Shown here one piece after another: positions 11,612 to 36,385 of a DNA stretch of 64,000 nucleotides. The position numbers and the translations under genes are program-made. Under the pieces are notes generated by a model. The model saw only the letters and a list, made by a program, of their open reading frames with translations, was not told where the DNA came from and made no database searches. Each line of letters starts with the position of its first letter. The first letter of the stretch is position 1. The stretch spans positions 450,000 through 513,999 of the forward strand of contig CP061210.1 in the NCBI GenBank assembly GCA_026016225.1. The letters run 5' to 3'. The stretch comes from Candidatus Nealsonbacteria bacterium. Its GTDB lineage: Bacteria; Patescibacteriota; Minisyncoccia; Minisyncoccales; JANBVM01.

Positions 11612-11697
11612 GTTTTTATTTTTTACTTAATTGTTTAATTGTTAACCTTTATATCATTCTATCACAACAAAAACCCAAGAAAAACTCTCGGGCAGCG

Positions 11698-12273
11698 CTA
11701 TTGTTCTTCAAACTTTACTTCTTCCGGGAATAACAATTGAAATGGATAACCTACATAATTCCTTTTTATCTTTCCACAACCAAGGTTTTTAAGAAAATCT
11801 ATCATTTCTTCTGTAATTTTTTTGGGATTTGGGTTTTTATCGGGACCAACATATTCAATTTCCACGAAATATCCAAGTCCTTTTACTGAATCTAAGGAAA
11901 TTTCGTAATCTTTGTATCTCCAAACTCTCCTTTTTTTATCCACTTTAACGATGGATTTAAAATTAAGAACATCTAATATCTTTTTTAATTGAGTTAAATC
12001 TTCTAGATTGGTCTGGTATTCATTACAATAATGGCTTTCCCCACTTTCATCAAAGTGCCAATTTTTATAGTTTATAGAGTGTTTACCATCTGAATTTCTT
12101 AATCTTAGCCACTCCTTTACAGGACGAACTTCAATAAAATTGCGATGAGTTGGAGAAAAGTACTCATCTATTTGATGTTTTTCTGATTTAAATTCAGCAT
12201 TTCTTTCTAAAAAATCTATTAAAGGCTTACTTTCTTCAATATTGACTTGAATTTCAATTTCAATATCTTTCAT
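11698..12273 (-). CDS. CYTH-domain protein (class IV adenylate cyclase / triphosphate tunnel metalloenzyme)
   Basis: N-terminal IEIEIQV (ExExK-like) strand and ~190 aa length. The leaderless-type promoter module sits directly upstream. Confidence 0.65.
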   Translation of the reverse strand: MKDIEIEIQVNIEESKPLIDFLERNAEFKSEKHQIDEYFSPTHRNFIEVRPVKEWLRLRNSDGKHSINYKNWHFDESGESHYCNEYQTNLEDLTQLKKILDVLNFKSIVKVDKKRRVWRYKDYEISLDSVKGLGYFVEIEYVGPDKNPNPKKITEEMIDFLKNLGCGKIKRNYVGYPFQLLFPEEVKFEEQ

Positions 12274-12279
12274 ATTTGT

Positions 12280-12288
12280 ATTCTATCA
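12280..12288 (-). promoter_or_regulatory. Extended -10 box TGATAGAAT, 6 nt from the ATG (leaderless-type)
   Basis: Minus strand reads TTTTTTGATAGAATacaaatATG, directly after a terminator T-run. Confidence 0.5.
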
Positions 12289-12354
12289 AAAAATCGCCTA
12301 AAAGGCGATTTTCTGAAGCTAACTCCCACTATTGGACGCGTTCAGAACCGTTGA
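12288..12354 (-). repeat. S-type intergenic repeat (tRNA-Gln 3'-end-like core plus terminator hairpin)
   Basis: Minus strand: AACGGTTCTGAACGCGTCCAATAGTGGGAG...AAATCGCCTTTTAGGCGATTTTTT. Confidence 0.6.
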
Positions 12355-12411
12355 TTGGGGAAAGATTAGAGAAAATCTTCAAGATTTGAAGACTCTTTTG
12401 GTTAAAGTTTA

Positions 12412-12446
12412 AATAAAAAAATGGTTTATCTGTTTAAACAAACCAT
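12412..12446 (-). terminator. Rho-independent terminator of 12459..12836
   Basis: Minus strand: ATGGTTTGTTTAAACAGATAAACCAT followed by TTTTTTT. Confidence 0.65.
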
Positions 12447-12458
12447 TTAAAATGTTTT

Positions 12459-12836
12459 TTAACCATCTATCGTTTCTGTGTAAACCCCAGCCTCTTCCGC
12501 TGCCACCATTAGTTTTCCATCGGGAACTTCATTACGAGAACGCATAACATCAATTCCTTCCTCATCAGTTCTCTTAACTAAAGCTTTCGTTTCAAGCTGT
12601 TTTTCATTTTCAACTCCATCAAGCCAAGTAACACTTGGATAAAGACTCCAAGAGCCATCTTTATTCTGTATTTCTACTTTTCTTAGAAGCATTACTCTGT
12701 TTCCATCTTTTTTCGGAAGAGCTGGGTCATAATTACAATGACACGATAATTCAATTAAATTTTCTTCATCAAAACGAAGAGCAATTTCTTTATAGGTGCC
12801 TCTTAAATAATCCTTCGTCTCTACTATTCTTTCCAT
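12459..12836 (-). CDS. Hypothetical protein (125 aa)
   Basis: ORF with SD-like AAGGAAGAGAGGTG upstream. No recognisable motif. Confidence 0.5.
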   Translation of the reverse strand: MERIVETKDYLRGTYKEIALRFDEENLIELSCHCNYDPALPKKDGNRVMLLRKVEIQNKDGSWSLYPSVTWLDGVENEKQLETKALVKRTDEEGIDVMRSRNEVPDGKLMVAAEEAGVYTETIDG

Positions 12837-12887
12837 TGTTAAAGAATCACCTCTCTTCCTTATTTAGCAAACTCTACAATAAAAGTC

Positions 12888-12948
12888 AAGACCGAGCCAA
12901 AGGCTCGGGCTTCAATAACTCCAAGAGACGGACAAGGTTAGAACCTCT
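12888..12948 (-). repeat. S-type intergenic repeat
   Basis: Minus strand: AGAGGTTCTAACCTTGTCCGTCTCTTGGAGTTATTGAAGCCCGAGCCTTTGGCTCGGT. Shares an exact ~31-nt block with 13674..13738. Confidence 0.7.
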
Positions 12949-12966
12949 TTAATGAAGGTTTTGGAA

Positions 12967-12992
12967 TAAAAAAAAGAGGTTAGTAGCCTCTT
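12967..12992 (-). terminator. Rho-independent terminator of 12992..13576
   Basis: Minus strand: AAGAGGCTACTAACCTCTT followed by TTTTTTT. Overlaps the stop codon. Confidence 0.6.
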
Positions 12993-13576
12993 TAAGAAGT
13001 TTCTATAGACAAAACAGGGGTTGTTGCCAATTCAAGTCCAGAATCATCAAGGCGTTCAAGCACCATCTCGTCACCGATAATAAGCTTTGTTATCTTGCAA
13101 CGACTGAAATCAAGTGGTTTTCTATCACGAGAAACGTTCCGCTCCCCTTCCTCGTCCTTGCCAAAACGATATACAGAGTTCCTGGTTTTAACTATAAATG
13201 ATCCATTGGGAATTTCTTGCTCTTTCCTTAGCTTCAAGCCTAAAACCCTTTTATAGATGTCTGAAAACATTTCTTGAGTTTTACTAAACCCAACAATTTC
13301 ATGATGTCTGCCTCCTATGTCGGGATGTTGGTATTCTGGGTCTCTGTTGTAACGTTTTTTTAAGGAATCCAGATATTCTTTATGTTGTTCTAATAAATCC
13401 AACACTTCTTTGATTTTTTCTTCGTCTTGGTCGGTTGCGTGCATTAAGACATTAATAACATCGAATAACAGGCCTTCCCCATAACTATCTAAAATCTCTT
13501 CTACTCTTTTATACAAAGAGCCAAGTTTATCTTTTAGAAGTTTTTTTGCAGCTTCAACATTAAACCTTTCTACCAT
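12992..13576 (-). CDS. Hypothetical protein (194 aa)
   Basis: ORF only. Looks less AT-rich than its surroundings. Confidence 0.5.
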   Translation of the reverse strand: MVERFNVEAAKKLLKDKLGSLYKRVEEILDSYGEGLLFDVINVLMHATDQDEEKIKEVLDLLEQHKEYLDSLKKRYNRDPEYQHPDIGGRHHEIVGFSKTQEMFSDIYKRVLGLKLRKEQEIPNGSFIVKTRNSVYRFGKDEEGERNVSRDRKPLDFSRCKITKLIIGDEMVLERLDDSGLELATTPVLSIETS

Positions 13577-13673
13577 TTATATCATCTCTTTTATATTCCT
13601 TTTCATACTAAAGATTATTCAATTTTACATATTCCACTGATGAGTCTTCCATAAATTTAGAGATTAGTCAAAT

Positions 13674-13738
13674 AAAAACCCGAGCCAAAGGCTCGGGCTT
13701 CAATAACTCCCCGCAATAGACGATGTTAGAACCTGTTA
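13674..13738 (-). repeat. S-type intergenic repeat
   Basis: Minus strand: TAACAGGTTCTAACATCGTCTATTGCGGGGAGTTATTGAAGCCCGAGCCTTTGGCTCGGGTTTTT. Confidence 0.75.
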
Positions 13739-13760
13739 TCTTTGCTGTTTGTTTTTGCGG

Positions 13761-14261
13761 TTATTCTACACCGTCTTCGATTACTATATGCTCTTCGTCA
13801 TCGTCTAGTGGCTCAAAACGTTTTTTGAAAGTTTTAATTGCCGCTTCGTTTATATAAAAAGCGTCTTTTGGTGAATCATCGCTACGTTTTAAAGTTCGTT
13901 GCTTCATCAATTCATCGGAGCATTTAATGTGATAGAGCTGAAAATTTGCCCCTGCTTTTGTGATGCGATCTCTCATTTCATCTCGTCGAGACCTACTCCA
14001 AAAACCATCGTCCAGAATGATATCAACACCAGCTTTTAGACATTTAAAAGCGGTATCTAACAAAAGCTTGGTCGTTCGTTCATGGTACTCGGCAAACTTT
14101 TCAGCGGGTGGATTGCTACCGTATAGAGAAATCATCCACTCATCGTTTGTAAATCGCAAAGCACCTGTTTTCTTTTCAAGCTTTTTAGCAAATGTAGTTT
14201 TACCAGCACCGACGAACCCATAAAGCATATGAGCAACGGGCTTTTTATTAGACTTTTTCAT
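13761..14261 (-). CDS. P-loop kinase / AAA_33-like ATP-binding protein (zeta-toxin-like fold)
   Basis: Walker A GFVGAGKTTFAKKL and Walker B-like IILDDGFW. 166 aa. Confidence 0.65.
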   Translation of the reverse strand: MKKSNKKPVAHMLYGFVGAGKTTFAKKLEKKTGALRFTNDEWMISLYGSNPPAEKFAEYHERTTKLLLDTAFKCLKAGVDIILDDGFWSRSRRDEMRDRITKAGANFQLYHIKCSDELMKQRTLKRSDDSPKDAFYINEAAIKTFKKRFEPLDDDEEHIVIEDGVE

Positions 14262-14535
14262 AAAAAACGTTTTGAGTTGTAATCGATTATATCACCAAGC
14301 GGAGCAAAAACAAATGGCAGATAACTCGTTTTTATACGAAGTCTATTCATAATTTATAATAAAAATGTATATTATACGAAATCATGATCAAATTACATAA
14401 TCCTTCCTTAGATTAACTCTATTAAGAGGGGTGTCAAGAAGAAAATATGGCTATCGTCTTCTTAGTTTTCCCTTTTTATAAGCAAGGTTTTCTACCTTCA
14501 AAATAACTCTATTTTCCGAAAAATTCAAGGAAACT

Positions 14536-14716
14536 AAAACCCGAGTTTCTAGCTCGGGTTGAGTGGTCACGTAAAATGACTGCGTCGTCACGTGGCCGCG
14601 TGATGAATTCTGTAAAGAATTCATTTTACGCGGCTCCGGCGGCAGGATTCGAACCGAGGCCTCTCGGTCCTCGAACTACGCACAGCGATGCTGGCATCCT
14701 CGGTCTAGAACTTGAA
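14536..14716 (-). repeat. T-type composite repeat (tRNA-like GGTTCGAATCC...CCGCCGGAG fragment plus unique long hairpins)
   Basis: Minus strand: AGTTCTAGACCGAGGATGCCAGCATCGCTGTGCGTAGTTCGAGGACCGAGAGGCCTCGGTTCGAATCCTGCCGCCGGAG..., ending in CCCGAGCTAGAAACTCGGGTTTT. Confidence 0.7.
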
Positions 14717-14796
14717 TTTCAAAAAAAATAGGAGAAAGAAATTTCTTATTTCATCTCCCTTAATATCTCATTATCTGAATAAATTGATTAAATTAC

Positions 14797-15099
14797 TTAG
14801 TTCTTTAGTGCTTGTTTAAGTTCTCTAGCAGATTTTTCAAGTTTATTTATAACTTCTTCTCTCCAAACTTCCTCTTTTTCTTTTTTTTCCTTTGGCCACA
14901 CTATCTCTCCCAAAAGGACACAAAAAACATAGTAATTGATTTCGGGTTCATCCCACTTACCTTCGTTGTAATTCCACTCTTCTAGCAGAACTCCATTTTC
15001 TTCTGCTATTCTTTCAGCTATCCTCCTCTCCCACTTTTCAAGTACAATCGCTTTTCCCAATTTTATACCTGATTCACCATAATCATAATAATATGACAT
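14797..15099 (-). CDS. Hypothetical protein (100 aa)
   Basis: ORF with SD AAAGGAGTGA upstream. No motif. Confidence 0.5.
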   Translation of the reverse strand: MSYYYDYGESGIKLGKAIVLEKWERRIAERIAEENGVLLEEWNYNEGKWDEPEINYYVFCVLLGEIVWPKEKKEKEEVWREEVINKLEKSARELKQALKN

Positions 15100-15200
15100 C
15101 CAATCACTCCTTTTTTTATTTTTAAAATATCTTTTATATTATTTAAAGTTACAATAATTTATTAAAAAAAGCAAGTTCATTACAGCTTGAAAAAAATTAA

Positions 15201-15276
15201 CTCCGGCGGCAGGATTCGAACCCCTCTCGGTCGTCCTAGGAGGATAGGCGTCTCGGTCTCTTGAACCAAGCACAAG
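15201..15276 (-). repeat. T-type repeat (tRNA 3'-half-like fragment)
   Basis: Minus strand: GCTTGGTTCAAGAGACCGAGACGCCTATCCTCCTAGGACGACCGAGAGGGGTTCGAATCCTGCCGCCGGAG. T-loop plus acceptor-like strand but no 5' half. Confidence 0.7.
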
Positions 15277-15345
15277 TATTATTCTTCATTCTAATAGTAA
15301 GCAAAATGTAAGTTGGAGGATTGGAATTTCTATACTTGCTCCTGA

Positions 15346-17276: not shown

Positions 17277-17521
17277 CTTTGCTTTTTTTCTATTCTCTTA
17301 TTTAGATAACCCTGGAGAAAGAAATAAACAACAAAAAACACTAAAGCACCAATTAATGATTCAATTAAATCAAATTGTCCGTGCCGAAGGTATTTTACTA
17401 GTGAAAAAGCAATAAAAAACGAAACTGTTGTGATGATCGCAATCGGCAAAGGATTCTTTTTTTGTTTTAGATTACTTCTTAACATATTTCCTTGATTTAT
17501 TACTGTAATAAAATAAGGCAA
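17273..17521 (-). CDS. Small membrane protein
   Basis: 82 aa, two hydrophobic segments. Start uncertain because it overlaps the upstream ORF. Confidence 0.35.
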   Translation of the reverse strand: MPYFITVINQGNMLRSNLKQKKNPLPIAIITTVSFFIAFSLVKYLRHGQFDLIESLIGALVFFVVYFFLQGYLNKRIEKKQR

Positions 17522-17876
17522 TACTGAATACCAATAAGATAAGGAATATCAGAATTACTAAAGGTGGTGGTATTTCAGAATCCTTTATATAAGCGTGGAT
17601 TCCAAAAACGAGCATTAACAAGCAGGTAAAAGCATAGAGAGAAGCAAACATATATCCCACAGGTATTACATCAGAAAGGGCCTCCTCTTCGCTTCTTTTA
17701 TAAAATCTTTTGATGAACAAAGCTATAATTACTCCGATTATTAAATAAGCAAATAATCTAATACCATAATTTGCTGGTAAATGTTCTAAAATAAGATATA
17801 AAACAGCGGGAACAAAAACTATGATTATTAATGATAACCTGAATATAAATTTTAATGTTTTTCTTGGGTCTTTCAT
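17472..17876 (-). CDS. Membrane protein
   Basis: Four hydrophobic segments. The ATG at 17876 is preferred because the upstream ATG lies inside the TGGTAGAAT -10 box. Confidence 0.45.
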   Translation of the reverse strand: MKDPRKTLKFIFRLSLIIIVFVPAVLYLILEHLPANYGIRLFAYLIIGVIIALFIKRFYKRSEEEALSDVIPVGYMFASLYAFTCLLMLVFGIHAYIKDSEIPPPLVILIFLILLVFSIALFYYSNKSRKYVKK

Positions 17877-17883
17877 CACTCCC

Positions 17884-17892
17884 ATTCTACCA
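17884..17892 (-). promoter_or_regulatory. Extended -10 box TGGTAGAAT, 7 nt from the ATG (leaderless-type)
   Basis: Minus strand: GGCGGTTTTTTGGTAGAATgggagtgATG. Confidence 0.5.
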
Positions 17893-18049
17893 AAAAACCG
17901 CCCGAGAGGCGACTTTTTGTTTATACTTAAAATTCGATTTCCTAGACGGATATGGCGATTTTTTCTCGAACTGCTTTTAAAATATGAGGACTTTCGGTCG
18001 CTCGAAAGGTCTCACTAGTCTGCTCTACTACTGAGATTAGAACCTGTCT
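17888..18049 (-). repeat. Composite S/T-type repeat
   Basis: Minus strand: AGACAGGTTCTAATCTCAGTAGTAGAGCAGACTAGTGAGACCTTTCGAGCGACCGAAAGTCC...GTCGCCTCTCGGGCGGTTTTTT. Starts ~10 nt after the pyrD stop. Confidence 0.7.
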
Positions 18050-20709: not shown

Positions 20710-21237
20710 CTAAGCTATCCCATCTCTTAAACTTTTATCTGATGTATTATTATATTTACCTTTCCAAGTATCTTTCTTACCTTTCTTTAGAATCTTATCA
20801 ACCAGTTCAATTTCTTCTCTAAGACCAGGAACGAATTTGTATTTATCTAACTCAACTGCTGTAATCCAGGCATAATCTACTGATTCTTCTGAAAGTTTAA
20901 CCTCTCCTGAACCATAGTCACAATAAAGACTAATAATTATAGTTGGAATATCATCTGCTCTAATGAAAGAAAGACTTAAAAGGTAACGAATGTTTTTAAC
21001 CTTTAATCCGACTTCTTCTTCAATTTCTCTTTCTAAAAGATTTTCCAGGACATTATACCAGTGGTCAGCTGTGTCTTTGGGCAGGCTTGAGTAATCACTC
21101 TGTTTAAGTTTTCCTCCAGGAACCGTCCAAAGTCCTGGAAATGCTTTTTCTTTTGGACTTCTTTTTGTAATCAAATATTTACCATCTTTAACAATAATTC
21201 CAGTAACTACTACATAGTGAAGTTTTTTGTCTATCAT
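20710..21237 (-). CDS. NUDIX hydrolase
   Basis: NUDIX box GGKLKQSD...LLEREIEEEVGL. 175 aa. Confidence 0.8.
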   Translation of the reverse strand: MIDKKLHYVVVTGIIVKDGKYLITKRSPKEKAFPGLWTVPGGKLKQSDYSSLPKDTADHWYNVLENLLEREIEEEVGLKVKNIRYLLSLSFIRADDIPTIIISLYCDYGSGEVKLSEESVDYAWITAVELDKYKFVPGLREEIELVDKILKKGKKDTWKGKYNNTSDKSLRDGIA

Positions 21238-21243
21238 ATCTTG

Positions 21244-21252
21244 ATTCTACCA
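21244..21252 (-). promoter_or_regulatory. Extended -10 box TGGTAGAAT, 6 nt from the ATG (leaderless-type)
   Basis: Minus strand: TTAGATTGGTAGAATcaagatATG. Confidence 0.5.
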
Positions 21253-22872: not shown

Positions 22873-22927
22873 ATTATTTTATCATTAAGCTTATATTTTG
22901 ACCTTTCGTTTCTATTCTACCACAAAC

Positions 22928-24937: not shown

Positions 24938-24997
24938 ATTTAAACTTTATTTTAACTATAATAACCGACCTTTCTTTTTATTATATCATTATATCAT

Positions 24998-25413: not shown

Positions 25414-25480
25414 CCTAACATCACATTTTATTTTTTATACTTTTTAAAATTGGAGCTATACCAAGTTTATCAAAATCTAT

Positions 25481-25554
25481 AAAAAAATCAAGTTCAGAAC
25501 GAGCTTGATTTTACTCACTGGGGGCCTTGGACGATGTTAGAACCTGTTTTATGA
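25481..25554 (-). repeat. S-type intergenic repeat
   Basis: Minus strand: TCATAAAACAGGTTCTAACATCGTCCAAGGCCCCCAGTGAGTAAAATCAAGCTCGTTCTGAACTTGATTTTTTT. A separate terminator precedes it. Confidence 0.8.
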
Positions 25555-25563
25555 TGGTTTGAA

Positions 25564-25597
25564 TAAAAAAAATAGCCTTGTTGTATTACCAAGGCTT
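25564..25597 (-). terminator. Rho-independent terminator of the dUTPase-deaminase gene
   Basis: Minus strand: AGCCTTGGTAATACAACAAGGCT followed by ATTTTTTTT. Confidence 0.7.
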
Positions 25598-25610
25598 GCA
25601 TGTTTAATGA

Positions 25611-26532: not shown

Positions 26533-26604
26533 AAAAAATCAAGTTCACTCTGAGCTTGATCTTAGCATCTGCGGGTCTTGGACGATTTTAGAATTTGTTC
26601 GATG
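26533..26604 (-). repeat. S-type intergenic repeat
   Basis: Minus strand: CGAACAAATTCTAAAATCGTCCAAGACCCGCAGATGCTAAGATCAAGCTCAGAGTGAACTTGATTTTTT. Confidence 0.75.
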
Positions 26605-26617: not shown

Positions 26618-27145
26618 CTACTTCAGCTTTTTTAATATCTTTTGAATAAAAGCTGATTTGCGGGTCGTATATGTATCACGGTCATATTTATATTTCTGTG
26701 CTAATTTCTTTTTTAACTCCGTATATTTTTTAGCAATCTTTTTGTTTTTACGAAGATAATCTCTAAAAAGTATATGATTTTTCCAAAGTTCTCCGCTTAA
26801 CTTCTCTATATGGACATAATGAGTTCTATTAACCTCGCTTCCCTTTGCAAAGAAATGTCTTCCTCTTATGCCCGCATCTCCTTTATATTCATATCCTAAT
26901 TTTTTAAGAAGCTTAATACATTCTTCTCCAACTTTTAGAGATTTTACGCCAATAGCTATATCAATTATGGGTTTAGCTTTAACTCCAGGAATTGAAGTAG
27001 CACCAACATGTTGAATATCTAAAACATATTTTCCAATCGTAGAAAGAAGTAGTTTTTCTTCTTTTTTATATAATTTTTTCCATTCTGGTTTGTAAGTGGA
27101 TAATTTAACTTTACCTCTTTGGAGACCTATAATTTTTGATTTCAT
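26618..27145 (-). CDS. GrpB family protein
   Basis: HVGATSIPGVKAKPIIDIAIGV motif. Start moved to Met45 (27145) because the 5' extension of the tracked ORF runs through a repeat/terminator and a -10 box. Confidence 0.7.
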   Translation of the reverse strand: MKSKIIGLQRGKVKLSTYKPEWKKLYKKEEKLLLSTIGKYVLDIQHVGATSIPGVKAKPIIDIAIGVKSLKVGEECIKLLKKLGYEYKGDAGIRGRHFFAKGSEVNRTHYVHIEKLSGELWKNHILFRDYLRKNKKIAKKYTELKKKLAQKYKYDRDTYTTRKSAFIQKILKKLK

Positions 27146-27152
27146 ATACTTT

Positions 27153-27161
27153 ATTTTATCA
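27153..27161 (-). promoter_or_regulatory. Extended -10 box TGATAAAAT, 7 nt from the ATG (leaderless-type)
   Basis: Minus strand: CGCGTTTTGTGATAAAATaaagtatATG. Confidence 0.45.
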
Positions 27162-27162
27162 C

Positions 27163-27262
27163 AAAACGCGAGAGAAAAACTCTCGGGAGCTAGTGGATCC
27201 GGGGATGGTACAATATACAAACCGCTACGCTGTAATTCCTTCGGAATTAAGAGAACTTGGTT
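27163..27262 (-). repeat. S-type intergenic repeat (divergent)
   Basis: Minus strand: AACCAAGTTCTCTTAATTCCGAAGGAATTACAGCG...CTAGCTCCCGAGAGTTTTTCTCTCGCGTTTT. Confidence 0.5.
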
Positions 27263-27909: not shown

Positions 27910-28938
27910 TTAGTCTAAAATTTCTGTGAACCATCTTTTGATCACTTCTTTTGTTTTTGGGTTCTGTTCAATAAAAAATCCTGGAAGATCTACTTCGAGA
28001 AAATAAAATCTAAAAGCAAAAAATCCAACAACCTTGTCCTTTCCCTTTTCAAGCACTATTTCATAGGCTCTGGCAATCTCTTCTTCATTCCAAGGTCCGC
28101 CCATCAACACTCCAAATTCAGTAATTATGACACCCTTGCAGCCATCCCTCTCTGCTTTGGCGAGCATGAAATCTAAAGCTCCTTCAACACTTTCTGAATA
28201 CTCTTCTAACGTCTGCTCAGACATTAACATACTGCCAAACCCTATATAATCATATCCTGCGAAATCGCCCGGGGGCTGTTCAGGTGTTTTGGATATCGAT
28301 TCTTTATCAGGAAAGCCAGGCATAGCCCCATTCCAAGCAACCTCGCCATTGTAAACCTCTTTTATCTTTAGGAGAATCTCCTGTCTCCACACTCCAATAT
28401 TTTTCTTAAAAATCTTCTCCGGTTCATTTAAAGGAGTAAAAAGTTCAACATCATACTCTTCTGCCAGTTTAGCCACCTCAATGATTCTGGAATTAAGAGC
28501 TTCTAAATCTACGTTTTCTGGCACAGGAGGATCCCCTACAGTTAATGCAACCTTCAAACCATTTCTGTGAACAGTTTGGATGTTATTAATTATAAGCTCT
28601 TTTTCAACAGGAAGGATCTCTTTAAGCTTTTCAAGCAGCTCAGGAGAAAAAACTTCTCTAATTCTTTCAAAATCAGGCTCGGCAAGAGGAGAAAGGGCCG
28701 CAATGAAAATCGTATTGATCCCAAGATCTTTCAGCTTCTGTATATTGGAAGCCAGGTAATTCGGATCCTGAAGCAATAACGTGGGCATCCAAGCTCCTTT
28801 ATAAATATAAACTTCTTCCTCTGCTTTTTCTTCCTTTGTTTTTTCCGTATCAGCAACAAAAATATTTTTATAGACAAAAAATCCTCCTATACCTAAACCA
28901 ATCAAAATTATTAAAATGATTAAAGTTTTTGTTTTCAT
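27910..28938 (-). CDS. Secreted/anchored TIM-barrel glycoside hydrolase-like protein (GH5-like)
   Basis: N-terminal TM helix. FTPLNEPE (acid/base NEP) and VIITEFGV (nucleophile-like) motifs. Confidence 0.5.
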   Translation of the reverse strand: MKTKTLIILIILIGLGIGGFFVYKNIFVADTEKTKEEKAEEEVYIYKGAWMPTLLLQDPNYLASNIQKLKDLGINTIFIAALSPLAEPDFERIREVFSPELLEKLKEILPVEKELIINNIQTVHRNGLKVALTVGDPPVPENVDLEALNSRIIEVAKLAEEYDVELFTPLNEPEKIFKKNIGVWRQEILLKIKEVYNGEVAWNGAMPGFPDKESISKTPEQPPGDFAGYDYIGFGSMLMSEQTLEEYSESVEGALDFMLAKAERDGCKGVIITEFGVLMGGPWNEEEIARAYEIVLEKGKDKVVGFFAFRFYFLEVDLPGFFIEQNPKTKEVIKRWFTEILD

Positions 28939-28946
28939 GTTTCTTT

Positions 28947-28955
28947 ATTCTACCA
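28947..28955 (-). promoter_or_regulatory. Extended -10 box TGGTAGAAT, 8 nt from the ATG (leaderless-type)
   Basis: Minus strand: GCGGTTTTTTGGTAGAATaaagaaacATG. Confidence 0.5.
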
Positions 28956-28973
28956 AAAAACCGCTTGCAACCA

Positions 28974-29539: not shown

Positions 29540-30403
29540 TTAAAATTCTATCTTTATATTTCCGTTGTCCAATCCTGTCCTTGCAGTTCCTACACAATCA
29601 CTTTCATCTGTAAAGTCACCATCATGAGTATCGTATATTGCACCTCCTTGAGGGTTAAAAATCTGTACCCGTGCCGTATCATAAATTCTTGGTTCGCCGG
29701 AATCTCCAGCCCTGAAAATCATCTTATAGCCAGGCTCATGATTCAATTCTCCCATTGCAGTAAAGTTCATGGCAGAGCAAGTTGTGCCCGTAAAGAAATT
29801 CAAGTCCGTTATATTGGTCATATGAAATTTGGACTTATTAAATTCTTCTGTATTAACATTGTGGAAATTAACTTGCCACTCACCAATTAATCCATAACTA
29901 CCTACATTAGCAACAGCTCCTCCAAAGCTAATATCTAGCTAGTCCTTACGTTTACCTTCAACCTCTTCTAGTAAATGCCCTCCACCACTTATATAATCAT
30001 CATTGATAATCCAGAACCAGCGTGTAAGGCGAACATCTATAGCACCTGCATCTTCTCGAGGATTTAATATAAAGCAATACTTTCCAGAAGTCCAGGTGGA
30101 TACATCGGCAGTTGCACTGAATAAGCTTCCATCCCATAAATATGGGTCATTGTAACCATCGACATTTCCTAAAACAGTATTAGTGCCAGCAGCACAAGTA
30201 CCTTCTCTAACCGCCCAAGAAACAGGATCCCAATCTTTATTCTCATCAATATAGATGGCTTTTAGATTTATAGTTCCAAAAACAAATTCACCTTCGTCTG
30301 AAGAGGTAATTGTACTGTTACTTAAAGCAAGTCCAGGTAATGTTAAAATCATACTACTTGAAAGAGTGACTGTGGTTATAATTGCAATAATAAGTTTTTT
30401 CAT
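29540..30403 (-). pseudogene. Secreted protein gene interrupted by a single in-frame TAG (29939..29941): pseudogene or read-through candidate
   Basis: ORFs 29939..30403 and 29540..29821 are in the same frame. Manual translation of 29822..29938 shows no other stop (..GKRKD*LDISFGGAVANVGSYGLIGEWQVNFHNVNTEEFNKSKFHMTNIT..). Confidence 0.6.
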
Positions 30404-30506
30404 TTTTTATATGGCCGATTTAATTTTTATTTCTCGACCTTTGCTCCTCCTTTTCGCTTTCACACTAAAGCTCATTTATTGAAAAGTCAAGCCCGAAATG
30501 GACTTT

Positions 30507-30586
30507 CTACCAAAAAACCGCCCTCTTGAGAAAACGATTGAAGTTGGCTGTGGGTCATGGACGACATTAGAACCTGTTTTATGACT
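30507..30586 (-). repeat. S-type intergenic repeat
   Basis: Minus strand: TCATAAAACAGGTTCTAATGTCGTCCATGACCCACAGCCAACTTCAATCGTTTTCTCAAGAGGGCGGTTTTTTGG. Confidence 0.75.
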
Positions 30587-30671
30587 ACAGAAAGGTTTGT
30601 TGTTATACCGAATTATACATAAAAAACTCCCCTCTTTAAGTCTGTCCAGAGAGTTCATAAATAAAGAGGTG

Positions 30672-31649
30672 CTATTTTTCTTGTTCTAATTTTGGTTCTT
30701 TATCTAAATCTACTTCTACTTCTCCGACTTTTAATTTCTTTTTATTTATCCAAACAAAACCTTTGTCTGGAGTGATTACGGCAACATCAACAAGACCTCC
30801 AACTCCAGGTATACCCCCTGGGTCAGCTGCAATACCATCAGAGAAGCGCTGAATAGCAGAAGTGGTTTGAATCATCAAAACACAAAAGTCAATTGCATCT
30901 TGAAGGGTCATTGTTCCCCACTGAATAACGTATTCTAAATTTCTGAGTTGCTTATGTACTTCTTCCTGCCCATATTTATCAGCCGCTTCATTAACAAACT
31001 TTATGTTCCTAATCCGACCGTCCCAGCCCAAAACAATCCTTGAAACTACATCAATCTGTCCAATCCAAGAAGCCCCGTATTCTTTGCCTTTTTCTTTACC
31101 ATCTCTTTTCTTTTGGATCTCGCCAGGAATATAGCACGTATAAACCTCATGTGAACCATCTTTGTTATAACCTGCTATAATGAAATTTATCACATCGACC
31201 CCACCTACGCCATTTTTCAAATTACCTTTAGCATCTTTAAAACGGAACTTAACAGCGTATTGCTCTTTTTTAATCTCTATAACTTCGCAACCCTGTTTCT
31301 GAAGGTCATTTTTAATCTTTTCTGGTAATTTATCTAATTGTTCCTGCCAGTTATATTTCTTATTAAATAAATAATGTAATTTTTCAGCTGCCTCCTTAAC
31401 ATCTAATTTTTCTATATCTATTTCTCGCTTAAATTGCTCGATAAATTTACTAATATTTTTCATTATTCCATCCTCTGGTAAAAAAGCTAGACCGGTTACT
31501 GCTACACCAATTCTTTTATTCAACTGAAAAAGCTTAGAAGCATTATCGCTTCCAATCCGTGCCATTCCTTTCCTGTTACGATAGGACTGCCGACTATCAG
31601 CAGCTAAAATGATTCCTTCTGGAGTTGTAGTGTTAATTGCTAAGGACAT
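30672..31649 (-). CDS. Proteasome beta-subunit/HslV-type Ntn hydrolase homologue with large insertion
   Basis: MSLAINTTTPEGIILAADSRQS (Thr nucleophile context), NASKLFQL, GVAVTGLA and IIAGYNKDGSHEVY. 325 aa. Confidence 0.65.
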   Translation of the reverse strand: MSLAINTTTPEGIILAADSRQSYRNRKGMARIGSDNASKLFQLNKRIGVAVTGLAFLPEDGIMKNISKFIEQFKREIDIEKLDVKEAAEKLHYLFNKKYNWQEQLDKLPEKIKNDLQKQGCEVIEIKKEQYAVKFRFKDAKGNLKNGVGGVDVINFIIAGYNKDGSHEVYTCYIPGEIQKKRDGKEKGKEYGASWIGQIDVVSRIVLGWDGRIRNIKFVNEAADKYGQEEVHKQLRNLEYVIQWGTMTLQDAIDFCVLMIQTTSAIQRFSDGIAADPGGIPGVGGLVDVAVITPDKGFVWINKKKLKVGEVEVDLDKEPKLEQEK

Positions 31650-31651
31650 AC

Positions 31652-32278
31652 TTAAAGATCGTTTTGAAAGATAAATTTAAGGAGAGGTTGGTATAAGGTT
31701 AAGACCCTATTGTTCCAAGTTGTGTCGAAAGCGGTGAACCCTACCTGGTTATTTTTGCCACACCACTTACTTCTAATGTTTACGTATTCTGAAGAAGAAG
31801 AATCCACACTGTTGCAGTCCATCGTCAGCATTTCATATTGCTGGCTAGAAATAACATAGTATCCTTCGTTCCGAAGAGCTTTCGTTAGATTAGTGTTATC
31901 ACTCACTCGGATAAAATTTTGGGGGTACTCAAAAAGTGAAAAATGCTGACCTTCTATGCCATAGGAGGTAGCAAGATTATCAAGACGAGAAGGATATGAA
32001 GAACGCCAGGCCGATGATTCAGGATAATCTACCGTAAAATGGTCCTCCCAAAAAGCATCGCTTGAAAGTTCTGTAAAACTACAAGAACAGAATATTCCAG
32101 AGGCAAACCCCAAGACCATCGCATTTTTCTCTTCTGAGGGCAAAAAGCAATCTTCCTTTTTGTGGGTTCCAAAAATATAAGCAGAGCCAGCACTATCACC
32201 CTCAAAAACAAACTTTACTCTACCCCCATGGTAGCGTTCAATAACTTCTTTCTGACTATAAAATAAATCTTTTTTCAT
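31652..32278 (-). CDS. Hypothetical protein (208 aa), operon partner of the proteasome-like gene
   Basis: Its stop lies 2 nt before the start of 30672..31649. No recognisable motif. Confidence 0.5.
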   Translation of the reverse strand: MKKDLFYSQKEVIERYHGGRVKFVFEGDSAGSAYIFGTHKKEDCFLPSEEKNAMVLGFASGIFCSCSFTELSSDAFWEDHFTVDYPESSAWRSSYPSRLDNLATSYGIEGQHFSLFEYPQNFIRVSDNTNLTKALRNEGYYVISSQQYEMLTMDCNSVDSSSSEYVNIRSKWCGKNNQVGFTAFDTTWNNRVLTLYQPLLKFIFQNDL

Positions 32279-32394
32279 ATTTCTTATTATTCTTATTATC
32301 TATGAATATTTAAGAAATGTCAAACTGGGCGGAACTCTTATTCCTAGCTAGAAATCGACTTCTTAGTATGGAGTATAAACTAACTTTCTATTAC

Positions 32395-32450
32395 TACGAA
32401 TCGAACCCCTCTCGGTCTCTCGAAAGTCTCACAGCTTAGCTCCCCCTAAT
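32395..32450 (-). repeat. T-type repeat fragment
   Basis: Minus strand: GGGGAGCTAAGCTGTGAGACTTTCGAGAGACCGAGAGGGGTTCGATTCG. Confidence 0.6.
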
Positions 32451-32715
32451 ATATGACTCGGCTATGGAAATAACTATGGGAACACCAAATATGAGAACCC
32501 AAAACCACCAAAATGGCTTTATAAAAGTTATCCAAAATGTTCTTATTAGTTTCGTATAATCAATGTGGATCATTCTTTATTGATTTTAACACAAAATAAG
32601 ACAAATGAGAGAGTATAAAAAGGTTCGACATGATTTTAATATTATTAAAAAATCAGAGTTGACACGATTTTTAGTTCACAAAATTTTGATTTTTGACAAA
32701 TAGTTATTTCTCTTA

Positions 32716-34641
32716 TTACAAATCCGCTTTTTGAGTGCATTGAGAATCAATATAAATTTCGCTATCAATGGAATTGAAAAAATATCCTGGGTAATAAATA
32801 GACTTAGGACACCAGGACACTACTCTTTGGGTGCAATTACTATCCCAGTACTCGTTATACCCATCATAGTAAGTATCGGAATAATTGGGAGAGGGCCTAC
32901 AGAAGATTGCCCTCTGGATGCACCAAGAATCAGAATAATAATCAACACCGTTATAAAAGTATCCTGGATAATTTGTTGATTTAGAACATCCCTTTACTAC
33001 TTTTTGAGTGCAATTACTATTCCAGTAAAATTCTTCTCTATTAACATCCCAATAGAAATCAGGGTTATCTGGATAACGAAGACAGGTGGTTAAATTTCGA
33101 CATTGGTTGTCTGAATAATAATTACTACCGTCATAATAATAACCAGGAAAGTCTGGTGAAGCGTAGCAGGGTTTTATATATCGCGGGTACACAGTAATTG
33201 ATTCATTGGAAGGAATTTTAACTATTGAGGCAGAGACATTACGATATTCGGGTGGTAAATCTCCAATACTAAACTCTTCGCCAGTTGTTTCAAAGTAGTA
33301 GTAATTTCTACCATTACTTAATGGATAATAATAGCCGCTAGGGTTGTTAGAAAATGGTACCGCTACGGCCATGTGGCCTGGTAATTCAACTAAGACAACA
33401 TCAATAGGCATGGCAATAATAACTGCTGCAGCTAAATAACTAGTATCTTCGCAATCTCCATTTTGTTCTGCAATTGTTTCCAATGGATATTTAGGATAGT
33501 CGTTATAACCTATAACATCATCGCCAACATACCCTAGTGATTGGATAAACGATATGGCAAAATCAGATTTTGTGTAGCCATTATCATCAGCAGTTTTTTT
33601 AAGCATTTCTGCTATTTGTTTAATATATTTATCATCGTAGGTAACATAAGTTGCTCCATGCGATTCACGTTTTTTATTTTTATAATAATCATACCAATCC
33701 GATGGGAAAGAATAATCCCATTTCCAAGATTCACCGCCATAGTCCCATTCAAAATGCTGAGCTATTAACCTCCCTCCCCCAGCTGGATGAGAATCTAGGC
33801 TGTCGATAATCCCATCGCTATCGGAATCGGGGTTTAAATCTGATGTCCCAGCAACTAATTCTTGAGCGTAAGTTAAGCCGTCGCCATCATTATCGGCATT
33901 CATTCTTTTTTCTTCAGCTTCTTTTTCTGACAATTTCTGTTCGGCGATTTTCCTCTCTAATTCTTCTTGAGCTCTTTTAGCTTCTTCTTTGGCTCTTTTG
34001 ACAGCTTCTTCCTTTGCTTTTTGTTCAGCTTCCTCTCTGGCTATTTTTTCTCCAGTAAGCTCTCCTTCAACTATTTTCCTTTTTGCCTCTTCTATTTTAG
34101 TTTGAGCTTTTTGATAATAAAAAGACTGTTCAGGAAGCTCTGACAATAAATCTACGGCTTCTTGATAATTACCCTTACCGAACTCATCTAATCCTTGATT
34201 ATATTTTGATAAATCTTTGATTAGCTTCTCGGTCTCTTCTTGTTTATTAGTAATTTCTTGCTTTTTAATACCTAAATTTTTAACAAACCAACTAATCTGA
34301 GCGAGATTTAATTTTTCGCTCGCCTCATTATATTTTTCTTCCGTTGTTAACCGTTCGGCCTCTTTTACCAATTTAGAAATTTTATTATATTCAATCGCTC
34401 CATAAGCAATTCCTGTAGTTACTAAAATAGAGACTACAATTCCTGCCAACAGCGGAATCTTAATAAGGTCTTTATTTTTCTTTATCGTTTTCTTATATCT
34501 TCCGAGATTCTTTCTTAAATCATCAGAAAGCGCTTTAAAAGCTCTATTTAAGACTTCAGGTTTTGCTTTATAAATATATCTCAGTTTTGTCTTTTTATTT
34601 TTTCGTCTCCCTCTTTTATTTTCCTTAATTTTTTCTTTCAT
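32716..34641 (-). CDS. Large membrane-anchored protein: coiled coil, Ca-binding Asp-rich (thrombospondin type-3-like) repeats, transglutaminase-like Cys protease core, C-terminal Cys/Tyr-rich repeats
   Basis: TM helix near residue 65. DNDGDGLTY...NPDSDSDGIIDSLD. NGDCEDTSYL...PGHMAVAV (Cys/His core). Four or more copies of a PGY(F/Y)YxGxxYYSDxxC-like repeat. Confidence 0.6.
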   Translation of the reverse strand: MKEKIKENKRGRRKNKKTKLRYIYKAKPEVLNRAFKALSDDLRKNLGRYKKTIKKNKDLIKIPLLAGIVVSILVTTGIAYGAIEYNKISKLVKEAERLTTEEKYNEASEKLNLAQISWFVKNLGIKKQEITNKQEETEKLIKDLSKYNQGLDEFGKGNYQEAVDLLSELPEQSFYYQKAQTKIEEAKRKIVEGELTGEKIAREEAEQKAKEEAVKRAKEEAKRAQEELERKIAEQKLSEKEAEEKRMNADNDGDGLTYAQELVAGTSDLNPDSDSDGIIDSLDSHPAGGGRLIAQHFEWDYGGESWKWDYSFPSDWYDYYKNKKRESHGATYVTYDDKYIKQIAEMLKKTADDNGYTKSDFAISFIQSLGYVGDDVIGYNDYPKYPLETIAEQNGDCEDTSYLAAAVIIAMPIDVVLVELPGHMAVAVPFSNNPSGYYYPLSNGRNYYYFETTGEEFSIGDLPPEYRNVSASIVKIPSNESITVYPRYIKPCYASPDFPGYYYDGSNYYSDNQCRNLTTCLRYPDNPDFYWDVNREEFYWNSNCTQKVVKGCSKSTNYPGYFYNGVDYYSDSWCIQRAIFCRPSPNYSDTYYDGYNEYWDSNCTQRVVSWCPKSIYYPGYFFNSIDSEIYIDSQCTQKADL

Positions 34642-34647
34642 AGATTA

Positions 34648-35049
34648 TTAAACTCCTCTAATTTTGCGATATTTAGAGATTAAATTATTTATACTTTCTG
34701 AAGATAAATATCCTGTTTGTTCTTCTATTTTTAAAATAAATTCAATAAACCCTAATAGATCTTTGGGATTTGCTTTTAAAATTTCTCCTTCTGTTTTAGA
34801 ATCATACATTCTTGCTTTTGAAATACGCTGAAAAATATCTTTATCAGCAAGATATTGCATATTCGATTTATAACAAAAATAACCATCTACTACTGTTATT
34901 ACCGTAGCCTCTGGTAAGCCCATTAATACAAAAGTTGGTAAGTTTCTACCAGTAATCTTCCTAATAAGATTAGCTAACGGTTCTCCCCAAAGTGGCTTTA
35001 ATGATTGTTTAGGTTGCTTACCAAATAGAATTCTTTTAATTTTTTTCAT
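34648..35049 (-). CDS. Hypothetical protein (133 aa)
   Basis: ORF preceded by a leaderless-type promoter module. Confidence 0.45.
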   Translation of the reverse strand: MKKIKRILFGKQPKQSLKPLWGEPLANLIRKITGRNLPTFVLMGLPEATVITVVDGYFCYKSNMQYLADKDIFQRISKARMYDSKTEGEILKANPKDLLGFIEFILKIEEQTGYLSSESINNLISKYRKIRGV

Positions 35050-35055
35050 ATTTCT

Positions 35056-35064
35056 ATTCTACCA
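35056..35064 (-). promoter_or_regulatory. Extended -10 box TGGTAGAAT, 6 nt from the ATG (leaderless-type)
   Basis: Minus strand: GGTTTTTTGGTAGAATagaaatATG. Confidence 0.5.
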
Positions 35065-35210
35065 AAAAACCATCCACCTCGTCGAGCGAAGCGAGACAGG
35101 CCTTCCTACCCACAATGTTTCATATGTAAAAAGAAAAGTTATTTTATATATAACACTTATTTTGTCAAACTAAACTAAGAACAAATCCAGAATAGACCCA
35201 AAAATTTTAA

Positions 35211-35249
35211 CTCAGCCCCCCCTGGTGCCACAATTTTAGAATCTGTTCT
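35211..35249 (-). repeat. S-type core (divergent, no adjacent hairpin)
   Basis: Minus strand: GAACAGATTCTAAAATTGTGGCACCAGGGGGGGCTGAG. Confidence 0.5.
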
Positions 35250-35286
35250 TATATATTTGTCCTTAAAAATTACCTTATAAATTTGC

Positions 35287-36276
35287 TTAAGATGCTAACT
35301 GACCACAAGCAGCTTTAATATCTTGACCAAAACGATAACGCTGGGTAACCTGAACACCCCCTTTTTCCAAAATTTCTTTGAACTTTTTCATACGCCAAGA
35401 TGAGGATGGTTTAAAAACTCCTGTTGGATTGTAGGAAATTAGGTTTACAAAATAAAGAGGTTTTTTCATTAACTTGCTTAATTTTTGGGCGTAGACGTCA
35501 GAATCATTTAAGTCTTTCATCATCAGATATTCAAACATAACTTTACGTTTGGTTTTTCCAATATAATCATCAACTACCTCAAGCACATCAGCAATAGGAT
35601 ATTTTTTATTTATTGGCATTATTTTTGAACGCAAATCATCATCAGGAGCATGAAGAGAGATAGCTAAATTTACCTGAAGTTTTTCTTCAGCTAATTTCTT
35701 AATGCCTTCTAAAATCCCAACGGTTGAGATAGAAATATGTCTGGCTCCCAAATTAAACCCTTCTTTGTCATTTAAAACCCTTATAGCGCTAATAACATTC
35801 TCATAATTCAGAAAAGGTTCTCCCATTCCCATAAAAACAATATTGGTAACTTTTTCTCCTTTTTTCTTTAGGTGACGGGCAAAAAATAGAACTTGTTCCA
35901 CAATCTCAGAAATTTCAAGGTTTCTTTTGAAACCAGTTTGTCCGGTAGCGCAAAATGAACAACTCAAGGCACAACCCACCTGTGAAGAAATACAAACAGT
36001 ATTCCGACCATCTTTATGTTTCATTAAAACAGACTCAATCTTTAGTCCATCTTTTAATATAATGAGAGTTTTTGCAGTCTTTTTGTCTTTAGAAAAAAGA
36101 GTTTGAGCATTAATTTTAATGGGACATATTTTGTTCAGATTCTCTCGCAACAACAAAGGCAAAATATTCGCTTCTCTCCAGTCTTCAATCAAATCAACAA
36201 ATAAGGCTTTTTTGGCTTGTTTTAGACGATAGGGATGTTCCTTATTAAGAAGGTTTTCAAGTTGAGTTAAATCCAT
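35287..36276 (-). CDS. rlmN: 23S rRNA/tRNA (adenine-C2)-methyltransferase RlmN (radical SAM)
   Basis: GCALSCSFCATG cluster motif, MGMGEPFLNY, and C-terminal GQDIKAACGQL. Confidence 0.85.
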   Translation of the reverse strand: MDLTQLENLLNKEHPYRLKQAKKALFVDLIEDWREANILPLLLRENLNKICPIKINAQTLFSKDKKTAKTLIILKDGLKIESVLMKHKDGRNTVCISSQVGCALSCSFCATGQTGFKRNLEISEIVEQVLFFARHLKKKGEKVTNIVFMGMGEPFLNYENVISAIRVLNDKEGFNLGARHISISTVGILEGIKKLAEEKLQVNLAISLHAPDDDLRSKIMPINKKYPIADVLEVVDDYIGKTKRKVMFEYLMMKDLNDSDVYAQKLSKLMKKPLYFVNLISYNPTGVFKPSSSWRMKKFKEILEKGGVQVTQRYRFGQDIKAACGQLAS

Positions 36277-36284
36277 ATTGACTT

Positions 36285-36293
36285 ATTATATCA
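36285..36293 (-). promoter_or_regulatory. Extended -10 box TGATATAAT, 8 nt from the rlmN ATG (leaderless-type)
   Basis: Minus strand: GGGTTTTTGATATAATaagtcaatATG. Confidence 0.5.
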
Positions 36294-36385
36294 AAAACCC
36301 GAGCTAAATGCTCGGGCTTTAAAAACTTGCACTGAGCTTGCCGAAGTGCTCCCCGCAATAGACGATGTTAGAACCTGTTTTATGA
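36293..36385 (-). repeat. S-type intergenic repeat (long spacer)
   Basis: Minus strand: TCATAAAACAGGTTCTAACATCGTCTATTGCGGGGAGCACTTCGGCAAGCTCAGTGCAAG...GCCCGAGCATTTAGCTCGGGTTTTT. Confidence 0.8.

Follow-up and report, generated by a model that had tools for sequence, protein, structure and literature searches.

We analysed a 64,000-nucleotide (nt) stretch of the genome of a Candidatus Nealsonbacteria bacterium (contig CP061210.1, positions 450,000 to 513,999; the window), in which a sequence-only reading had described gene starts preceded by a terminator T-run fused to an extended −10 box, TGnTAnAAT, that ends 6 to 8 nt before the ATG. The window has a GC content of ~33%, and its minus strand carries most of the genes. 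All eight minus-strand junctions that had been quoted were found as written, with ATGs at 12273, 17876, 21237, 27145, 28938, 35049, 36276 and 60794. If the gap is taken as the nt that separate the final T of TAnAAT from the A of the start codon, these starts have gaps of 6, 7, 6, 7, 8, 6, 8 and 8 nt in the same order; the −10 form is TG[G/A]TA[G/T/A]AAT, and each ATG opens a long reading frame. The product of a gene behind one of these junctions, RlmN, is 100% identical to a protein from a Ca. Nealsonbacteria metagenome-assembled genome, which puts the organism in the class Paceibacteria of the Patescibacteria. Close relatives were identified through RlmN as well and include the closed Nealsonbacteria genomes CP179891.1 (L085, 98% RlmN identity) and CP179892.1 (L002, 96%).

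The first module (12271-12313, minus strand, as are all eight) comprises a hairpin at 12313-12289 (AAAATCGCC-UUU-GGCGAUUUU; predicted fold −14.4 kcal/mol, z −3.7), the box TGATAGAAT at 12288-12280 and a gap of 6 nt before ATG 12273 of a CYTH gene (11698-12273), whose Pfam match runs from residue 4 against profile position 2. In the second (17874-17917), a hairpin at 17917-17893 (−8.6 kcal/mol, z −2.5) is followed by TGGTAGAAT at 17892-17884, a gap of 7 nt and ATG 17876 of an acyltransferase-like fragment (17472-17876); a second in-frame ATG at 17885, inside the −10 box, is a caveat here. The third (21235-21252) has TGGTAGAAT at 21252-21244, a gap of 6 nt and ATG 21237 of a NUDIX gene (20710-21237), with no terminator hairpin (minimum free energy [MFE] 0); L085 has a T-to-C change in the gap, and the box and the ATG are retained. 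The fourth (27143-27185) has a hairpin at 27185-27169 (CGAGAG-UUUUU-CUCUCG), a T-rich tail, TGATAAAAT at 27161-27153 and a gap of 7 nt before ATG 27145 of a GrpB gene (26618-27145). The fifth (28936-28961) has a T-run, TGGTAGAAT at 28955-28947 and a gap of 8 nt before ATG 28938 of a gene of unknown function (27910-28938), and its stem is unconvincing (MFE −1.4, z +0.7). In the sixth (35047-35105), a hairpin at 35105-35065 (−16.7 kcal/mol) precedes TGGTAGAAT at 35064-35056, a gap of 6 nt and ATG 35049 of another gene of unknown function (34648-35049); this type, CCTCGACGAGGTGGAYGGTTTYYTGRTAGAAT, occurs twice in the relative L003. The seventh (36274-36320) stands before rlmN (35287-36276) and has the most stable hairpin, at 36320-36294 (GCCCGAGC-AUUUA-GCUCGGG; −17.3 kcal/mol, z −5.5), then TGATATAAT at 36293-36285 and a gap of 8 nt before ATG 36276. 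The eighth (60792-60833) consists of a hairpin at 60833-60817 (−10.4 kcal/mol), a T-run, TGGTATAAT at 60811-60803 and a gap of 8 nt before ATG 60794 of a third gene of unknown function (60108-60794).

Five modules were found beyond these eight, with ATGs at 43674, 61716, 55566, 50764 and 47370. On the minus strand, TGATAAAAT at 43689-43681 lies 6 nt from ATG 43674 of a GtrA-like gene (43078-43674; module 43672-43689) and has no hairpin. A radical SAM gene (60874-61716; module 61714-61760) is preceded by a hairpin (AUCGCC-AAGAA-GGCGG; −12.7 kcal/mol, z −3.5), a T-run and TAAAAT at 61728-61723, with a gap of 6 nt to ATG 61716. The P-type ATPase gene (52921-55566; module 55564-55578) has TAAAAT at 55578-55573, also 6 nt from its ATG 55566, and the RmuC gene (49766-50764; module 50762-50799) has a classical −35, with TTGACT at 50799-50794, a 17-nt spacer, TAAGAT at 50776-50771 and a gap of 6 nt to ATG 50764. 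The last module is on the plus strand (47354-47372), where TGCTATATT at 47354-47362 lies 7 nt from ATG 47370 of dnaB (47370-48743). It forms part of a 53-nt divergent region (47317-47369), in which it stands back-to-back with TAGATT, 6 nt and ATG 47316 of a glycosyltransferase gene on the minus strand; the two leaderless-type promoters have a common palindrome, AGACTTGCCAAACTTGGAAGTCTT, which may be an operator. Nine window modules carry the full TGnTAnAAT. In total, the leaderless type accounts for ~13-15 of the ~71 genes in the window, or, counted against the ~48 genes not tightly coupled to an upstream gene, for ~30%.

The distance between box and start was then compared with background. 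In the window, TGNTANAAT occurs 36 times, compared to 20.1 ± 4.4 in shuffled sequences (0 of 100 shuffles reach 36), and 25 of the 36 sites lie on the gene-rich minus strand. Among 76 gene starts defined from open reading frames (ORFs; first ATG), the nearest upstream TANAAT is at 6 nt in 6 genes, at 7 nt in 2 and at 8 nt in 3, and a gap of 4 to 9 nt was found at 12 of the 76 gene starts compared to 28 of 1511 other ATGs (Fisher p = 1.2e-7). A test free of gene calls, which counted TANAAT, a gap and an ATG opening at least 80 codons, gave 6, 3 and 3 cases at gaps of 6, 7 and 8 nt in the window, compared to ~0.8 per bin at 10-30 nt. Loci of 21 kb around rlmN orthologues were taken from closed Nealsonbacteria genomes and other Paceibacteria; at the same three gaps, the close relatives L002, L003 and L085 (63 kb) gave 6, 2 and 4 cases. 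A further set from the Candidate Phyla Radiation (CPR; 114 kb from Kuenen-, Falkow-, Uhr- and Shapirobacteria) gave 10, 3 and 5. This set came from a genome-collection scan with the RlmN alignment, in which the peptide patterns were generic and the matches listed were mostly from Actinomycetota and Chloroflexota, with at least 6-7 CPR loci among them. Of 80 metagenome loci collected, 65 Paceibacteria contigs (505 kb) entered the distance test and gave 22, 7 and 15 cases for TANAAT, with 12.3 expected for the three bins jointly (p = 2e-12), and 9, 1 and 8 for TGNTANAAT, with 1.3 expected (p = 9e-15); ~5 of these 18 TG-extended matches are rlmN starts themselves. Actinobacterial loci from the same scan, a clade known for leaderless genes, served as positive control with the box TANNNT and gave 9, 2 and 6. 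In the negative control, the Shine-Dalgarno (SD)-using Staphylococcus phage K (GC 31%), no box was found at gaps of 2 to 11 nt despite 866 TANAAT boxes in 100 kb. Gaps of 7 nt are rarer than those of 6 and 8 nt in all sets (window 6, 3, 3; relatives 22, 7, 15; other CPR 10, 3, 5; Actinobacteria 9, 2, 6). The distribution of motif-to-ATG distances, the check that had been proposed for this arrangement, thus peaks at 6-8 nt in the window, the close relatives, the other CPR loci and the 505 kb of contigs. The −10-proximal spacing is over-represented relative to background, as in group C of GeneMarkS-2, whose leaderless genes are recognised by a Pribnow box placed 6-8 nt upstream of the start codon (PMC6028130).

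The strongest single line of evidence, in our judgement, is the phylogenetic footprint upstream of rlmN: TTTTTG[A/G]TATAAT, 8 nt and the ATG are retained in orthologues at 98, 96, 93 and 88% identity (L085, L002, L003 and L092). In orthologues at 71-52% identity with unrelated flanks (L096, L093, L089, L087, L094, L164, L121, L135, L124, L126 and L010), the −10 box still lies 6-8 nt from the ATG, and in L093, L094 and L135 a different hairpin and T-run again stand tight against it.

Several observations bear on whether the boxes are promoters. A TG one base 5′ of the hexamer accompanies 42% of start-proximal hexamers, compared to 6.9% of all TANAAT in the same DNA; this 6-fold enrichment argues that the hexamers are promoters and not AT-rich noise. 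In the window modules, the −35 position coincides with the hairpin or the T-run, as expected of extended −10 promoters, which do not need a −35. A generic −35/−10 scan showed no enrichment (53 matches compared to 64 in shuffles) and is uninformative for this promoter type. Pyrimidines are slightly more frequent at −1 than in other genes (75% versus 62%, p = 0.04); we did not use this weak difference as a start-site signature, T at −1 being general in the clade.

The same boxes also occur at a greater distance from starts. TGnTAnAAT abuts a hairpin and T-run 24-44 nt before other ATGs, with boxes at 11664, 14294, 22922, 24988, 29328 and 36572. In the minus-strand example at 11656-11693, a hairpin at 11693-11673 is followed by TGATAGAAT at 11664-11656 and by 44 nt to ATG 11611; further leadered fusions have boxes at 22922-22914 (ATG 22872), 24996-24980 (ATG 24937), 29328-29320 (ATG 29288) and 36572-36564 (ATG 36525). 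The terminator-promoter fusion is therefore not specific to leaderless genes, since it also precedes starts with predicted leaders of ~17-37 nt. The leadered extended −10 transcripts often carry A(A)AGGTCG ~3-12 nt past the predicted start (window 24950-24980, 22885-22913, 30404-30485 and 63919-64000; also L085 and L003), a partial complement of the 16S 3′ tail that may be a 5′ untranslated region (UTR) element. A longer leader beginning GGAGCAAAGGTCGA is common to two unrelated small genes, at 29939-30403 and at 63602-63916 (a DUF4234 gene). The leader of the cold-shock protein gene csp, CTTTAGGATAAAACCTTAAAATATTAATTAA and onward (window 36849-36900, minus strand; L003 3290-3346; L004 18080-18135; L085 9370-9428), is kept across Paceibacteria at ~70-98% RlmN identity and is probably a regulatory structure of the csp 5′-UTR.

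The quoted 6-8-nt gaps had been said to contain no SD sequence, and none was found at any of the eight junctions. The strong SD cited as a contrast is present as well: AAAGGAGGTGA at 56002-56012 (minus strand), 7 nt upstream of ATG 55994; the ATGs at 12836, 15099 and 44662 are SD-led too. Among leaderless-type starts, 1% have an SD core. Such a core was found at 7.6% of window starts compared to 13.6% at a control position, and in the clade as a whole (window-wide plus 0.7 Mb of relatives) at 10.4% compared to 10.3%; for strong cores in the clade, the values were 7.5% and 4.4%. By the same crude method, 68% of the starts of Staphylococcus phage K carry an SD core. Save for a few perfect SDs, the lineage is thus essentially SD-independent. 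Operon-internal genes have very short or overlapping junctions, with neither an SD nor a −10 box at the start, and A is enriched at −10 to −2 of all starts. The genome mixes tightly coupled, leaderless, AT-rich-leader and a few SD-led genes.

Taken together, these data make it probable that the modules are functional promoters giving leaderless or near-leaderless mRNAs. They would be housekeeping sigma-70-type extended −10 promoters (TGnTAnAAT) with no usable −35. Transcription usually starts 7-9 nt after the −10 hexamer. A normal start point would then fall on, or within ~2 nt of, the A of the ATG, so that the mRNA would begin with the start codon, and such a 5′-AUG mRNA would presumably be translated without an SD. 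In about half of the modules, an intrinsic-terminator hairpin and its U-tract would fill the −35 space and end upstream transcription, the terminator T-run passing straight into the TG of the next promoter. The leaderless gene class that had been postulated is supported by the spacing peak, the TG enrichment and the spacing kept at rlmN, while the leaderless state itself is deduced. Sequence and statistics directly show the motif and its spacing, how strongly it is enriched and that it is kept across the clade, as well as the missing SDs and the predicted hairpins; from them we infer a transcription start at the ATG, termination at the hairpins and translation of 5′-AUG mRNAs in this organism. 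The fusion is best understood as intergenic space compacted to the extreme, with insulation of each transcription unit as a further effect.

A number of points weigh against this interpretation. Gaps of 8 nt could mean leaders of 1-2 nt, not strictly none. The rlmN box of L004 is merely 2 nt from the ATG, and many more distant rlmN orthologues have no box at all, because the gene is inside an operon there. Four of 11 window modules (21237, 28938, 43674 and 55566) have no convincing hairpin. Several intergenic regions (for example 12274-12458 and 25414-25610) have a terminator directly after the upstream stop codon, so the promoter-adjacent hairpin may be redundant as a terminator. Finally, since operon-internal genes lack an SD, the ribosome can initiate internally without one, and read-through transcripts could be translated too.

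With respect to the fusion itself, a clear hairpin and T-run were found at six of the eight quoted junctions (12273, 17876, 27145, 35049, 36276 and 60794; MFE −8.6 to −17.3 kcal/mol), so this part of the description holds for these six; 28938 has a T-run without a stem, and 21237 has neither, no T-run having been claimed there. As intrinsic terminators we counted GC-rich stems that enclose a loop of 3-8 nt and have at least 4-5 Ts directly 3′ of them, on the same strand as the upstream gene. This pattern is present in seven of 11 window modules (−8.6 to −17.3 kcal/mol, T-run at the end) and in 5 leadered modules. In the relatives, a T-run of at least 4 abuts the TG in 57% of leaderless-type TG-extended modules, and a T-run with a hairpin of −8 kcal/mol or stronger was found in 50% of modules compared to 7% of other TGNTANAAT sites. 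Stem sequences vary among copies and genomes (CCCGAG/CTCGGG, TCGCC/GGCGA, GGACG/CGTCC), and the architecture is constant. Modules of the relatives that have no hairpin lack the T-run too, and the T-run is therefore part of the terminator and not of the promoter; we rejected the T-run as a promoter element in itself because T-runs are almost confined to hairpin modules (57% compared to 50%). The physical merging of promoter and terminator T-run is thus recurrent, as had been proposed.

The fusion could also be a by-product of dispersed repeats. The window holds a repeat resembling the 3′ end of a tRNA (T-loop and 3′ acceptor strand; compare tRNA-Gln at 41869-41940), with the reference copy at 13719-13734 (minus strand; AAAC AGGTTCTAACATCGTCC N7 GGAG/CAG). 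Twelve copies were found compared to 0.35 expected in the window, all on the minus strand, starting at 12931, 13719, 20692, 21633, 25530, 26581, 29374, 30560, 36361, 59839, 60856 and 61805, usually between a stop codon and a hairpin with T-run. These repeats are concentrated in the window, L085, L002 and L094 and are sporadic in other relatives. Two contigs from Logan, L001 and L086, break at the copy 102 nt upstream of rlmN. Units containing GACCGAGA occur in 13 copies, all on the minus strand, spread over 14662-63317, and a CTCGG-TTCGAGNGA-CCGAG hairpin unit accompanies dispersed co-oriented repeats. An Rfam search (gathering thresholds and E ≤ 1) found two tRNAs and nothing else, and the repeats are therefore outside any curated RNA family. 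Two short ORFs on the minus strand, at 36319-36525 (68 aa) and 30476-30658 (60 aa), overlap GGTTCTAAC copies and may be spurious or partly repeat-encoded; one is called as a gene in CP179891.

If the hairpin and T-run were the 3′ end of tRNA-derived repeats of the REP or MITE (miniature inverted-repeat transposable element) kind, with promoters adjoining their landing sites, promoters and leaderless starts would be real and the fusion would have no function of its own. We regard this as possible but rather doubtful; it is compatible with functional leaderless promoters. The stems do form sequence families (CCCGAG...CTCGGG, ATCGCC...GGCGAT and AATCAAGCTC...GAGCTTGATT; repeat families D3, D5, D6, D12 and D15), and units of the form AGGTTCTAAC...GGAG plus TTTTTGAA plus GCCCGAG hairpin plus T-run recur. 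In some intergenic regions there are two terminators, the second part of a repeat unit, and indels between strains break in repeats. However, the abutment of hairpin, T-run and TG is also found in distant Paceibacteria without the GGTTCTAAC repeat and with unrelated stems, and the figures of 50% versus 7% indicate a strong association with start-proximal promoters.

It had further been suggested that each repeat unit carries its own outward promoter. This stands in part. Many copies precede a hairpin and T-run, and an abutting −10 box then follows ~3-5 of the 12; however, fusions also precede leadered genes, and the promoter goes with the downstream gene at rlmN. In L002 (CP179892), a 1.1-kb block comprising the hairpin, the promoter, rlmN and a degenerate repeat lies in a wholly different neighbourhood behind a different repeat copy, so the promoter belongs with the gene downstream of it.

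The repeats also mark differences between strains. In a comparison of the window with CP179891 (L085), breakpoints lie in repeats. In a 4.3-kb indel (window 18037|13736), the crossover falls within ACAGGTTCTAA, with ~11 nt of common identity, which is short for RecA-dependent recombination; a second indel, of 8.7 kb, extends from the stop codon of rlmN as far as the repeat copy at 26593. No recombinase or integrase was found among the ~70 window proteins scanned against Pfam. The modules could conceivably form the 5′ ends of self-contained cassettes, each holding between one and a few genes, gained, lost or shuffled among Nealsonbacteria strains by recombination at the tRNA-3′-end-like repeats, although we think this unlikely. 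The short crossover and the 1.1-kb rlmN block of L002, which moves as a unit, would be compatible with it. Were it true, leaderless, −35-less expression with a built-in terminator would make a context-independent cassette, in an integron-like system with a different recombination site.

The arrangement resembles integron attC arrays in that small genes in one orientation each have a related repeat behind them and near-identical strains differ in gene content, with breakpoints in the repeats. It differs in that the core TTCTAAC matches attC RYYYAAC at only 6 of 7 positions, the repeat has no R′/R″ inverted pair, the genes have their own promoters, and housekeeping genes (rlmN, csp, mltG/YceG) are included. 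We rejected an attC/integron reading of the GGTTCTAAC repeat: 12 of 12 copies are on one strand with no inverted partner, so no attC-like hairpin can form, and the window has no integrase. In a tRNA-associated region at 40856-41951 (minus strand), tRNA-Gln is followed by tRNA-like fragments in tandem and these by a gene of unknown function (217 aa) with GACCGAGA motifs on either side. Next to the 217-aa gene are a TdeIII-type restriction enzyme and an N6/N4 methylase (38895-40855), a composition that resembles islands integrated at tRNAs; in CP179892 (L002), a HEPN gene follows the same tRNA end.

A different explanation for the boxes is that TAnAAT is an AT-rich, non-SD signal for translation initiation on polycistronic read-through mRNAs, the hairpins being leaky terminators or RNA stabilisers. 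SD-poor Bacteroidota provide the model for such a signal. The SD core at background level in the clade, the AT-rich, SD-less regions upstream of operon-internal genes and the A enrichment at −10 to −2 of all starts would all fit. However, the TG stands exactly one base 5′ of the hexamer (42% versus 6.9%), the sharp peak at 6-8 nt equals that of the Actinobacteria control, and operon-internal starts have no box. The identical motif also lies 24-44 nt from other starts, which does not suit a ribosome-binding signal. We consider this explanation improbable.

That the start codons are mis-assigned, with the real starts downstream and ordinary leaders, is very improbable: the N-terminal homology check leaves out the three genes of unknown function (27910-28938, 34648-35049 and 60108-60794) and the GtrA domain begins only at residue 70, but RlmN is conserved from M1 (M1 and L3 invariant and D2 near-invariant in 15 orthologues), the CYTH, GrpB, NUDIX, P-type ATPase and DnaB domains begin at residues 4-15 from the proposed ATGs, and the peak was counted on ATGs with which a reading frame opens. 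Upstream in-frame stops support the assignment as well; where the gap is 6 nt, the hexamer supplies such a stop with its own TAG or TAA. By RlmN conservation, Pfam domain starts and in-frame stops, the start codons are, as far as sequence can tell, correctly assigned.

The gene content of the window has an archaeal flavour. The gene at 43778-44662 (minus strand), between the gtrA-like and cysS genes, encodes a protein of 294 aa that combines a TFIIB zinc ribbon with two cyclin-like TFIIB repeats (PF00382, E = 1e-32), a homologue of archaeal/eukaryotic-type transcription factor B (TFB) in a bacterium, and has one of the few strong SDs of the window. Only three close homologues were found (100, 79 and 61% identity, the first a protein from a Nealsonbacteria metagenome-assembled genome [MAG]), and the next, archaeal (Bathyarchaeota) TFBs are at ~34%. 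Since other Nealsonbacteria reportedly live as epibionts on Methanothrix, the gene may have been acquired from archaea long ago and may possibly be employed against the host. An HMG-CoA synthase-like gene (109-1302, plus strand), a myo-inositol-1-phosphate synthase gene (6257-7360, minus strand) and a weak proteasome-subunit match (30672-31649, minus strand) add to this flavour. Archaeal-type promoters, considered because of the TFIIB homologue, were rejected: the box is at −12 to −7, not near −26, and has a bacterial TG extension.

CPR bacteria have reduced ribosomes and cannot be grown alone, and their transcription and translation initiation are known almost solely from sequence. According to our data, SD-led initiation seems to play a marginal part in this Paceibacteria lineage, in which leaderless genes appear to make up ~10-20% of genes and ~30% of genes that come first in a transcription unit. 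This affects start-codon calling in thousands of CPR MAGs, in which SD-based models will misplace starts. It also brings a deep-branching lineage into the question of whether leaderless initiation is the ancestral state, and the compact promoter/terminator parts of ~45 nt could be tried in genetic tools for CPR organisms. In the literature searched, no paper was found that connects leaderless mRNAs or SD usage with Patescibacteria/CPR, including Parcubacteria and Saccharibacteria.

Promoters and terminators of these types, and the leaderless architecture too, have been described in other bacteria, and no new mechanism is involved; what we describe is a new lineage for a known architecture, whose local peculiarity is a −35-less extended −10 promoter packed against the upstream terminator. 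Group C is reported to be common among Actinobacteria and Deinococcus-Thermus but not among Proteobacteria and Firmicutes, where it is rare; its genomes typically have 25-50% of transcription units of the leaderless type, and CPR lineages are unmentioned in the paper that defines it (PMC6028130). As in Mycobacterium tuberculosis and Deinococcus deserti, both of group C, the −10 box here precedes the start codon by 6-8 nt and an SD is absent. The differences are the Patescibacteria/CPR lineage, an AT-rich, full TAnAAT with frequent TG where the high-GC clades use TANNNT, non-leaderless genes that are mostly SD-less and not SD-led, and promoters that often abut terminators.

Extended −10 (TGn) promoters are exemplified by galP1 of E. 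coli and by the common TRTGnTATAAT of Bacillus and Streptococcus, and usually give leadered mRNAs with an SD. The promoters described here have the same TG one base 5′ of the −10 hexamer and no recognisable −35, but half of them sit 6-8 nt from an ATG. Repeats that carry terminators and/or outward promoters include the Correia elements of Neisseria and the enterobacterial REP/BIME and ERIC sequences. Like these, the window has dispersed, co-oriented intergenic hairpin repeats just 3′ of genes, some copies of which are followed by a promoter; unlike them, the −10 box lies outside the conserved unit and follows a minority of copies, all copies are on one strand, and the repeat resembles the 3′ end of a tRNA and not an element with terminal inverted repeats.

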